Translations under genes and position numbers: made by a program
Assembly (NCBI GenBank): GCA_963721715.1
Contig: CAVRKI010000004.1
Span: 1,283,876 to 1,347,875 of the forward strand
DNA from: an uncultured Acidobacteriota bacterium
GTDB lineage: Bacteria > Acidobacteriota > Vicinamibacteria > Vicinamibacterales > UBA2999
Direction of reading: 5' to 3'
Length of the DNA stretch: 64,000 bases
Part shown: positions 36,673-41,577 of the stretch, in pieces
How positions within the stretch are numbered: position 1 is the stretch's first letter
Layout: every line of letters starts with the position of its first letter
Notes under the pieces: model-generated
Databases searched by the model: none
Told to the model about the DNA's origin: nothing
The model's input: the letters and a program-made list of their open reading frames with translations, nothing else

Positions 36673-38418
36673 GTGATCCGCAAGGACATCGGGGCATCCG
36701 CGGTGCCGCCCCATCTGCTGGACTACCAGCGCACGCGCGCCGAGTTCTCGTGGGACGCGCTGCGGCGCCAGCTTCAGGGTCTTCCGCAGGGTGGTTTGAA
36801 CATCGCCCACGAGGCGGTGGACCGGCACGCCGCAGGACCGCGCGCCGACCATGTGGCGCTCCGCTGGCTCGGCCGGGACGGGTGCCGTGCGCGACTGGAC
36901 CTACCGCGACCTCGCACGCGGGTCGGCCCGCTTCGCGAACGTGCTGCGGGCGCTGGGCGTGGGCCGGGGCGATCGGGTGTTCTCGCTCCTGGGGCGCGTT
37001 CCGGAGCTCTATCTGGCGGCGCTCGGCACGCTGAAGAACACGAGCGTCTTCTGCCCGCTGTTCTCGCAGTTCGGCCCCGAGCCGGTCGAGCAGCGGCTGC
37101 GCCGCGGCGATGCGCCGGGTGCTCGTGACGACCGCGGCGCTGTACGAGAAGCGAATCGCCGCGCTGCGCGACCGGCTGCCCGCGCTGCAGCACGTTCTGC
37201 TCGTCGACGCCGACGACGACATCAGCGACGCGATCCGGTCGCTGCCGCAGGCTGATGGCCGCCGCCAGCGATCGCTTCGTGATCCCGCCGACCGCCCCGG
37301 AGGACATGGCGCTGCTCCACTTCACCAGCGGCACCACCGGGATGCCGAAGGGCGCGGTCCACGTGCACGAGGCCGTGCTGATGCACTACGCCACCGGCCG
37401 GTACGTGCTCGATCTGCATCCCGACGACGTCTTCTGGTGCACGGCCGATCCCGGCTGGGTCACGGGCACTTCGTACGGCATCATCGCGCCGCTGCTGCAC
37501 GGCGTGACCAACCTCGTGGACGAGGCCGACTTCGACGCCGAGCGCTGGTACGGCGTGCTGCGCGATCAGAAGGTCACGGTCTGGTACACCGCGCCGACGG
37601 CCATTCGCCGGCTGATGCGCATCCCCGGCGAACCGCGCACGCGCTACGACCTGAGCGCGCTGCGGCTGGTGCACAGCGTCGGCGAGCCGCTCAATCCCGA
37701 GGCCGTCGTCTGGGGACAGCAGGCGCTCGGCCTGCCGATCCACGACAACTGGTGGCAGACCGAGACCGGCGGCATCATGATCGCCAACTTCGCCGCGATG
37801 GACATCCGGCCCGGCTCGATGGGCCGGCCGCTGCCCGGCATCGAGGCGGCGATCGTCCGCCGCACCGACGGCGGCGTCGAGGTCATCACCGAGCCCGACG
37901 TCGAGGGCGAACTCGCGCTGCAAGCCCGGCTGGCCCTCGATGTTCCGCGGCTATCTGCACGACGAGGCGCGCTACGCGAAGTGCTTCGTCGACGGCTGGT
38001 ATCTGAGCGGCGATCTCGCGACGCGCGATGCCGACGGCTACTTCTGGTTCGTCGGCCGCGCCGACGACATCATCAAGACCTCCGGCCACATGGTCGGCCC
38101 GTTCGAGGTCGAGAGCGCGCTGATGGAGCATCCGGCGGTCGCCGAGGCCGGCGTCATCGGCAAGCCGGACCCGCTGATCGGCGAACTGGTGAAGGCCTTC
38201 GTCGCGCTCAAGGCCGGCCAGACCGCCGAGCGACGCACTGCGCCTGGAACTCCTCGGCTTTGCCCGCACGCGCCTCGGCCCGGCCGTGGCGCCGAAGGAG
38301 ATCGCCTTCATCGACAGCCTGCCGAAGACGCGCAGCGGCAAGATCATGCGCCGCCTGCTGAAGGCCCGCGAACTCGGCCTGCCCGAAGGCGACACTCTCC
38401 ACGCTGGAGAACGACTGA
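36673..38418 (+). pseudogene. AMP-forming acyl-CoA synthetase (AcsA-like) disrupted by six +1 frame changes
   Basis: Family motifs [71 protein letters not shown]. Recognisable peptide runs jump frame 1>2>0>1>2>0>1 at ~36883, 37115, 37251, 37927, 38225, 38397. The start codon is uncertain. Confidence 0.8.
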
Positions 38419-39413
38419 TGAGCGCTGCACTGCCCTGATCGCGACCGCGCCCGCCGCCTGCTCTGGCAGATGGTGCGCATCCGCCGCTTCGAGGAGAAGT
38501 GCGTCGAGCTCTACAGCGCGCAGAAGATCCGCGGCTTCATGCATCTCTACATCGGCGAGGAAGCCGTGGCCACCGGCGTCATCGAGCACCTGACGCCCGA
38601 GGATGCGGTGGTCGCCACCTACCGCGAACACGGCCAGGCGCTGGCGCGCGGCGTGTCGCCGGGCGCGATCATGGCGGAGATGTATGGCAAGGTGGAGGGC
38701 TGCGCGCGCGGCCGCGGCGGCTCGATGCATCTCTTCGATGCAAGGCGACGCGCTTCTACGGCGGCAATGCCATCGTCGGCGGCGGCCTGCCGCTGGCCGT
38801 CGGGCTCGCGCTGGCGGACAAGATGCAGAGCCGCGACGGGCGTCGACCGTCTGCTTCTTCGGCGAGGGCGCGGTGGCCGAAGGCGAGTTCCACGAGTCGA
38901 TGAACCTGGCCGCGCTGTGGCAGCTGCCGGTGCTGTTCGTCTGCGAGAACAATCTCTACGCGATGGGCACGCGCGCTGCGCCATCACCGAGTCGCGTCAC
39001 CGACATCGCCAGCAAGGGCGCGGCCTACGACGTGGCCAGCGCCGTGGTCGACGGCATGGACGTGCTGGCGGTGAGCGAGGCGGCCGCGCCAGGCCGTCGC
39101 GGCCGTGCGCGAAGGCCGGCCCTACCTCCTGGAGTGCCGCACCTACCGCTTCCGCGCCGCACTCGATGTTCGATGCCGAGCTCTATCGGCGCAAGGACGA
39201 GGTGGCGCGAGTGGAAGAAGCGCGATCCCGATCACGACGTTCTTCGGCGCAGATGAAGGCGGCCGGCGTGCTGACCGACGCGGACTACGCCGACGATCGA
39301 GCGCGAGGTCGCGACGCGAGGTCGACGAGGCCGTCGCGTTCGCCGAGGCCGGCACCTGGGAGCCGGTCACCGACCTGACGCGCTTCGTCTATTCGGAGGG
39401 GGCACAGCCATGA
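38418..39413 (+). pseudogene. 2-oxoacid dehydrogenase E1 alpha (TPP) subunit, at least 10 frame changes
   Basis: Segments [99 protein letters not shown] and [13 protein letters not shown] are scattered over all three frames. Confidence 0.8.
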
Positions 39414-40412
39414 GCCGCCGACGCCGATCAGCCCGACGCGACGATGACCTTCCGCGACGCGGTGCGCGAAGGCCTGCGCGACGCGCTGCAGCGCCGATCC
39501 GCGCGTGTTCCTGATGGGCGAGGACGTGGGCCACTACGGCGGCTGCTTCGCGGTGAGCCGCGGCCTGCTGGCGGAGTTCGGCCCCGAGCGCATCCGCGAC
39601 ACGCCGCTCTCGGAGTCCGGCTTCGTCGGCGCCGGCATCGGCGCGGCGCTCGGCGGCATGCGGCCGATCGTCGAAGATCATGACCTGCAACTTCAGCCTG
39701 CTGGCGCTCGATCAGATCATGAACACCGCGGCCACGCTGCTGCACATGTCCGGCGGCCAGTTCAACGTGCCGCTCGTCATCCGCATGGCCACCGGCGGCG
39801 GCAAGCAGCTCGCGGCGCAGCATTCGCACAGCCTCGAAGGCTGGTATGCGCACATTCCCGGGCATCAAGATCGTCACGCCCGCCACGCTCGAGGACGGCT
39901 ACGGCATGCTGGCCACGGCGCTGGCCAGATCCCGATCCCGTGCTGATCTTCGAGAACCAGACGCTCTACAACATGGAGGGCGAACTCGCCGGCCGACGCC
40001 GGCCCGGTCGACCTCCGGCGCGCGGCCATCCGACGCCAGGGCAGCGACGTGTCCATCCTCACCTACGGCGCCAGCCTGCACAAATCGCTCGCAGGCGGCC
40101 GCCGACACTCGCGACGGAGGGCATCGAGGCCGAGGTGGTCGACCTGCGCGTGCTGCGTCCGCTCGACGACGCGACGATCATGGCGAGCGGTGGCAAGGAC
40201 GCACCGCGTGCTGATCGTGGACGAAGGCTGGCGCAGCGGCGGCATCTCCGCGGAGATCAGCGCGCGCATCCACGAGCAGGCGTTCTACGAACTCGATCGC
40301 CCGGTGGCGCGCCTGTGCACCGCCGAGGTGCCGATCCCCTACGCGCACCACCTCGAGGAGGCGGCACTGCCCCAGGTCGACAGCATCATCGCCGCCGTGC
40401 AGGCACTGGTGA
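39410..40412 (+). pseudogene. 2-oxoacid dehydrogenase E1 beta subunit, at least 8 frame changes (3' end uncertain)
   Basis: Segments [94 protein letters not shown] and [17 protein letters not shown] are spread across frames. ATGA overlap with the E1 alpha stop. Confidence 0.8.
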
Positions 40413-40416
40413 AGCC

Positions 40417-41577
40417 ATGGCTGACGTTCCTGATGCCCAGCCTCGGCGCCGACATGGAGGCGGGGACGCTCGTGAAGTGGCGACGTGGCCCCGGCGACAC
40501 GGTGAAGCGCGGCGACATCATCGCCGAGGTCGACACCGACAAGGGCGTCATCGACATCGAGTGCTTCGAGTCCGGCGTCGTCGAGCGACTCGTGGTCGAA
40601 GCCGGCGCGAAGGTACCGGTCGGCACCGTCCTGGCCGAGATCCGGCCGAAGGACTCGGCGGCGGTCTCCGCCGCCTGCAGCTGCCAGTTCCGGCGCCGCT
40701 CGCGCGCCGCACCGGCCGGAACCATGGCGACAGGCGCCGGAGCGGCACGTGCGCGTCTCGCCGCTGGCCCGGAAACGCGCGCCGCGAGCTGGGCATCGAT
40801 CTGTCTACCGTTCGCGGCACCGGACCCGGCGGCGCGATCCAGGTCGCGGACCTGGAAGGCATCTCGCAGTGCAGTGCCGCTCCGCGACATCTCCGTCCAC
40901 GCCGGCGCCGGCAGTCGCCATGCGCCGCGCCATCGCCGCCGCCATGGCCAGGTCGAAGCGCGAGATTCCCGCACTACTACCTGCAGACCCGCATCGACAT
41001 GAGCCAGGCCCTGGCGTGGCTGCGCGGCCGAGAACGAGAAACGCCCCATCGAGGAGCGCCTGCTGCCGGTCGTGCCGCTCCTGAAGGCGGTGGCGCGCGC
41101 CCTGCGCGACGTGCCGGAGCTGAACGGCTTCTGGATCGACGGCGAGCACCGCGTGTCCGACGCGATCCATGTCGGCTTCGCCATCGCGATGAAGGGCGGC
41201 GGACTCGTCGCGCCAGCCATCCACGACGTCGACCGTCGCTCCTGCGACGAGCTGATGGCCGCCCTGCGCGACCTGATCCCGCGCGCGCGGCGGGCCGCCT
41301 GCGCAGTTCCGAGATGACCGACAGCACCATCACCGTCACCAGTCTCGGCGATCGGGGGTGTCGAGAGCGTGTTCGGCGTCATCTACCCGCCGCAGGTGGC
41401 GCTCGTCGGCTTCGGCTCGCATCGTCGAGCAGCCGTGGGCCGAGAACGGCATGCTCGGCGTGCGGCCGGTGATCACGGCCTCACTCGCGGCCGACCATCG
41501 CGCCACCGACGGACATGTCGGCGCGCAGTTTCTCGACGCGCTGACCCGCCATCTGCGCGCCCCGGAGGGCATCATGA
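40417..41577 (+). pseudogene. Dihydrolipoamide acyltransferase E2, multiple frame changes (3' end inferred)
   Basis: Lipoyl domain ([31 protein letters not shown]), E3/E1-binding domain ([24 protein letters not shown]) and catalytic domain ([45 protein letters not shown]) lie in different frames. Confidence 0.75.

Follow-up and report, generated by a model that had tools for sequence, protein, structure and literature searches.

In the long-read assembly of Trypanosoma brucei Lister 427, in which a heterozygous genome was collapsed, 98% of the error calls were insertions or deletions (indels) or complex variants, which gave rise to apparent frameshifts (PMC8445201). Frameshifts also result from indels in Nanopore consensus sequences, and polishing is needed for bins with less than about 40-fold coverage (PMC9262707). 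Here we describe a 64,000-nucleotide stretch (the window) of contig CAVRKI010000004.1 from an uncultured Acidobacteriota bacterium, in which the reading frame of four consecutive genes, encoding an acetate-CoA ligase (ACS) and the E1 alpha, E1 beta and E2 subunits of a 2-oxoacid dehydrogenase, is broken dozens of times by single extra bases. Based on comparison with related sequences, we suggest that these frame changes are likely consensus errors, arising when reads that stem from two diverged copies of the gene cassette were collapsed into one, and not mutations in the organism.

The locus resembles T. brucei in that the inserted bases look like two alleles in tandem. Unlike that diploid eukaryote, in which errors were checked against reads, the “haplotypes” of the window would be strains or different community members that have a conserved cassette in common. 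As with errors in long-read consensus sequences and metagenome-assembled genomes, single-base indels split conserved genes, and their removal restores full-length proteins. Such errors are described as frequent when coverage is low (PMC9262707); they, however, are mainly homopolymeric and genome-wide, whereas those of the window are almost all insertions, mostly outside homopolymers, and fall within 4.7 kb. The frameshifting of several neighbouring genes is also seen in pseudogene decay in reductive genomes such as that of Mycobacterium leprae, but the window shows no stops, no deletion bias and no accelerated branch, and carries a strong signal of purifying selection.

Single-base insertions in four consecutive genes

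Translation and family scans place the genes in the order ACS, E1 alpha, E1 beta, E2 and acyl carrier protein (ACP), with overlapping starts and stops (Table 1). In a frame plot of G+C content at third codon positions (GC3) and a seven-state frame hidden Markov model (HMM), both run over the whole window, repeated shifts of the coding frame on the + strand are limited to about 36.9-41.4 kb; outside this interval, changes of frame fall on stop codons at gene boundaries. The events run from about 36,884 to the A at 41571, 3 nt 5' of the ACP start. The density of about one event per 104 nt in this insertion storm, against one per about 59 kb outside it, rules out a uniform process. Alignment to orthologs agrees with the frame plot and the HMM, and together they confirm what an earlier note on this DNA had claimed, namely that a storm of frame changes is confined to four consecutive genes.

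Events were counted with a custom frameshift-tolerant protein-to-DNA aligner against orthologs from L001, L002, L007 and two closer relatives, with DNA alignments to relatives as a cross-check. The closer relatives are L081 (ERZ25039600:contig_5187), a 1.37-Mb ENA contig that is syntenic with the window and has a nucleotide identity of 83-90% to it, and L082, an 11.4-kb JGI contig found by a metagenome scan with the neighbouring oxidase. This realignment to intact orthologs, a check that the earlier note had proposed, gives about 45 inserted and 2 deleted bases. The note's figure of about 25-30 frame switches stands as a minimum, but the actual total is larger, at about 43 insertion events and two deletions. 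Its six events in ACS are exactly six +1 shifts, and its “at least 10” in E1 alpha, “at least 8” in E1 beta and “several” in E2 become about 14, 10 and 13 insertion events. Three shifts that it had read as -1, at about 38745, 38850 and 40090, are actually +2 (38739-40; 38840 with 38846; 40090 with 40107), and the ACS start, which it had placed at 36673, is a GTG at 36661 in the alignment.

No in-frame stop occurs in any reconstructed frame of the four genes, in agreement with the note, and no deletion is longer than 1 nt outside the variable E2 linker. Both single-nucleotide deletions lie in homopolymer runs (a C run at 40491 and a G run at 41291). When the extra bases are removed, four full-length proteins without in-frame stops result. 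The window has a G+C content of about 69%, and GC3 is still at least 0.9 in each frame segment of the storm.

Inserted bases, selection and related assemblies

For 27 cleanly resolvable events, we listed all single-base removals that best restore the ortholog protein. At least two removals are equally good in 21 of the 27, and the alternatives are usually two different adjacent third-codon-position bases, each giving a synonymous codon (for example GC[G/C], AC[T/C], CT[G/C] and GA[T/C]). A single possible inserted base was found in 22% of events, and 7% were readable solely as insertions into homopolymer runs. Simulated random insertion gives 51-55% and 28-34% for these two classes and is rejected (binomial P = 0.0004-0.0025), whereas a simulation that writes two alleles side by side gives 23.5% and 9.7%, in agreement with the observed values. 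At 38739 the window resembles, in our reading, a splice of the ortholog local variants FDAKT and FDKAT. Two other models were dropped: homopolymer slippage, given how few resolvable events are run-only, and a motif or methylation cause, given that no k-mer exceeds about 3-fold enrichment at the window sites, whose contexts are diverse.

The protein sequences show constraint throughout. In comparison with L081, ACS has a ratio of nonsynonymous to synonymous substitution rates (dN/dS) of 0.12 and E2 one of 0.24, values similar to the 0.25 of the intact ACP gene; differences from L081 in ACS number 35, 25 and 155 at codon positions 1, 2 and 3; and the operon equals or exceeds the flanks in nucleotide identity to L081. 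If the roughly 45 indels were real, hundreds of unconstrained substitutions, stops and longer deletions would be expected, and none are seen.

Relative-rate tests were made against the intact L082. With L001 as outgroup, ACS has 8 unique amino-acid and 46 unique nucleotide changes in the window against 27 and 118 in L082, and E1 alpha, E1 beta and E2 go in the same direction, the window having fewer. In flanking genes, by contrast, the window branch is equal or longer, with 94 versus 73 unique nucleotide changes for the oxidase, 35-43 versus 25-27 for the CMD gene and 22-27 versus 17-26 for a thioredoxin-like gene. With L086 as a shared outgroup, 57% of the unique changes in the flanks fall on the window, against 44% of those in the operon, a difference of about 3.3 standard errors. 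The short window branch is specific to the storm; a blend of two diverged copies would likewise lie nearer to the family average.

L082 shares 84% identity with the window and 95-97% with L081, and its four operon genes are without frameshift. L081 carries seven extra single bases, four in the operon (two in E1 alpha, one in E1 beta and one at the E2 start; at about 12053, 12591, 13591 and 13757) and three in the isocitrate dehydrogenase gene, IDH (about 20084, 20451 and 20662). The four operon insertions are missing from L082, and the window, 93-99% identical to L081 at IDH, lacks the three found in that gene. Of the seven, five are wobble doublets of the TC[G/C], AC[G/C] or GG[C/A] type, the other two set alternative bases of the first or second codon position side by side ([A/G]CT and G[A/C]G), and all seven fall in the most conserved genes of that locus. 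This type of error therefore occurs in the wild, and in L081 it is demonstrably absent from the near-identical genome L082; it is on the relative L081, and not on the window, that this comparison of near-identical genomes was made. Each of the three IDH errors creates the sequence GGCACGC.

The operons of L086, L001 and L007 are also without frameshift, as is that of L002 save for an ambiguous +1/+2 in the variable E2 linker. The five-gene order with overlapping start and stop codons is, among the matches listed, common to Verrucomicrobiota, Acidobacteriota, Desulfobacterota, Cyanobacteria, Chloroflexota and others (L001-L080), with 75-90% amino-acid identity across those phyla and no E3 gene in the cluster. 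Matches listed in a scan of genome contigs with an ACS fragment reach at most 86% identity and come from other phyla. These observations suggest that the cassette has spread horizontally; compared with cassettes elsewhere, frameshifts occur only in the window copy and, to a lesser degree, in L081.

The operon and its surroundings

Frame-corrected ACS is 90% identical to P0001, the protein encoded on L081, in a protein search, and scores 936.5 bits on NF003313, above the curated cut-off of 729. Corrected E1 alpha (431.6 bits on TIGR03182, cut-off 393.85) and E1 beta (397.8 bits on NF006667, cut-off 321) also exceed their curated thresholds. Corrected E2 scores 233.6 bits on TIGR01349, the equivalog for the pyruvate dehydrogenase (PDH) E2 acetyltransferase, below the curated cut-off of 445; the product, which has a single lipoyl domain, is a 2-oxoacid dehydrogenase E2 of the generic kind.

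Events are unevenly spread within the genes. An event-free 670 nt of ACS (37249-37920) is the most conserved part of that gene, while E1 alpha has clusters at 38972/38978/38999, spaced 6-21 nt apart, and seven extra bases between 39086 and 39314. Resolution of events is poor in the Ala/Pro-rich E2 linker (40660-40920). The TGA that ends E1 beta in L081 and L082 reads TGG in the window (E1 beta/E2 junction, 40410-40435), and as deposited the last E1 beta segment reads in frame into E2, giving a 655-aa open reading frame (ORF) at 39505-41472. This TGG may reflect either a substitution or two further +1 errors.

Table 1. Features of the window discussed in the text, with inserted and deleted bases by window position
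Feature	Position	Strand	Events and remarks	Sites
Insertion storm	36877..41571	+	~43 insertion events (~45 extra bases), 2 single-base deletions	
Acetate-CoA ligase (ACS)	36661..38418	+	GTG start; six +1 events (exact), no deletions, no stops	~36884, 37114, 37248, 37921, 38224, 38396
PDH-type E1 alpha	38418..39413	+	15 extra bases in ~14 events, no deletions	38433, 38739-40, 38840, 38846, 38972, 38978, 38999, 39086, 39156, 39208, 39227, 39249, 39293, 39314
E1 beta	39410..~40420	+	~10 +1 events, no deletions	one within 39413-39443; 39489, 39677, 39857, 39930, 39991, 40091, 40107, 40189, ~40412
E2 acyltransferase	40417..41577	+	Lipoyl domain, linker, catalytic domain; ~13 insertion events, two 1-nt deletions	Insertions: ~40425, 40484, ~40665, 40781, ~5 nt in linker 40857-40896, 40968, 41026, 41353, 41420, 41571; deletions: 40491, 41291
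Acyl carrier protein (ACP), 82 aa	41574..41822	+	Intact; ATG overlaps corrected E2 stop (ATGA)	
Multicopper oxidase	41847-43208	convergent to operon	Clean, 1.36 kb	
napA, periplasmic nitrate reductase	21710..24480	-	Lone +1 shift	~22,560

The limits of the storm are sharp. ACP is event-free, yet only about 2.3 events would be expected in its 249 nt, which alone is not significant; the oxidase 3' of it is also event-free, with about 12 events expected. Relatives align at 80% identity or more to 33 kb of the flanking sequence, where gaps of a length not divisible by three occur only at gene boundaries or in the relative, and 19 large ORFs outside the storm have complete Pfam domains in one frame. 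The earlier note's statement that ACP and all flanking genes are intact is nearly correct. The exception is napA, in which positions 4-582 and 588-829 of the NF010055 profile are matched in different frames, joined by a shift in the +1 direction. This is the sole frameshift found in the roughly 59 kb outside the storm, about 14 kb upstream of it, and a consensus error of the same type probably underlies it. Two further HMM frame changes proved not to be shifts: at 1946-2207 a separate CopZ-like gene is followed by an ECF sigma factor gene, and 45850-46014 is a low-complexity region with in-frame indels.

napA lies in about 15 kb of DNA (18775-33830) that is extra relative to L081 and sits between blocks syntenic with that contig. 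This extra DNA also encodes a second molybdopterin oxidoreductase, multi-haem cytochromes, a cytochrome b and a subunit of a COX1-type oxidase, and L083-L085 show synteny with parts of it. About 500 nt of intergenic DNA 5' of ACS (35915-36421) has no counterpart in L081 or L082. Farther downstream, a stretch comprising the 5' part of IDH and the sequence upstream of it (47368-47966) is 98-99% identical to L081, against a locus average of about 83%, which could reflect recent exchange or extreme constraint.

Origin of the frame changes

We propose that reads from two diverged, functional copies of this highly conserved, horizontally widespread cassette, which could belong to co-existing strains or to another community member, were most likely collapsed into one consensus. 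Under an indel-dominated error model, in which mismatches are rare and missing or extra bases common, a site with reads split between two bases would be written with both, each read then lacking one, and mostly synonymous third-position single-nucleotide differences would thereby become one-base insertions. Such a process would explain why the bias is towards insertions only, why stops are lacking and the protein sequence is preserved, and why the events are sharply confined to the conserved cassette. The clean 670 nt of ACS may be explained by few variable sites there. Among the causes suggested in the earlier note, mis-mapping comes near to the mixing of diverged copies that the doublets favour; no paralog of the operon is present within the window, however, and the pattern points away from plain low-coverage noise.

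Several points weigh against this interpretation. The artefact is deduced from sequence and was not seen in reads; we infer both the mixed-copy cause and the type of assembly, and a long-read or metagenome origin is our assumption. The doublet test is indirect, comprising 27 events and a model with one fitted parameter, and with the closest reference only 84-90% identical, most inserted bases are located to within 1-3 nt. The clean 670 nt of ACS contradicts a simple rule that more conserved sequence means more cross-mapping, and IDH, error-bearing in L081, is clean in the window. The short window branch could also be obtained by gene transfer or recombination of the cassette.

The insertion bias and an error density of about 1% would fit the low-depth consensus of insertion-rich reads, such as those of the PacBio continuous long read (CLR) type, if a region of very low depth or a gap had been filled with barely corrected long reads and no second haplotype were involved. 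Sharp boundaries with clean flanks and the absence of an enriched motif are consistent with such noise. We consider it unlikely, though, since the doublet statistic rejects random insertion, the insertions come with almost no deletions or excess substitutions, the storm-specific short branch is not predicted, and L081 has the same doublets in its conserved genes. Programmed recoding, by +1 ribosomal frameshifting or transcriptional slippage, would explain why nearly all shifts share one direction, but we give it next to no credence: it would require about 40 sites in 4.7 kb, these sites have no common slippery motif or homopolymer, and the orthologs in other assemblies are plain uninterrupted ORFs.

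It is very doubtful that the operon lost its function in vivo and has begun to decay, or that it underwent a local burst of insertion mutations, even though four adjacent genes are disrupted as deposited and napA too has its lone frameshift. Bacterial pseudogenes are known for a deletion bias, the opposite of the ratio of about 45 insertions to 2 deletions found here; stops are lacking, and outside the variable linker no deletion exceeds 1 nt. Nor is dN/dS near 1, the window branch is shorter than that of the intact ortholog instead of accelerated, GC3 stays high in all frame segments, and the hundreds of unconstrained substitutions expected alongside so many indels are absent. The earlier note explained the frame changes by a local consensus or polishing artefact more readily than by pseudogene decay, and the indel ratio, the constraint on the proteins, the lack of stops and excess substitutions and the precedent of L081 all support that view; its alternative, an indel-only inactivation of the whole operon, is very unlikely. 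That the extra bases are real, a localised insertion-only burst or a templated process having inactivated the operon too recently for substitutions, stops and deletions to follow, strikes us as extremely improbable.

Collapse of two diverged copies into one consensus remains our preferred explanation, and the pattern it leaves may be of practical use: insertions alone, forming pairs of alternative synonymous third-position bases, separate collapsed-copy errors from homopolymer errors and from true pseudogenes without recourse to reads. In such assemblies a frameshift storm can be limited to a conserved cassette that is shared horizontally, and the same signature in the public contig L081 suggests that the problem is wider than this record. 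The storm is very probably not a real biological feature, and as a finding it is ordinary. The ACS-E1 alpha-E1 beta-E2-ACP operon is almost certainly intact in the cell and should be treated as such, and its four interrupted genes should neither be annotated as pseudogenes nor counted as a lost pathway.

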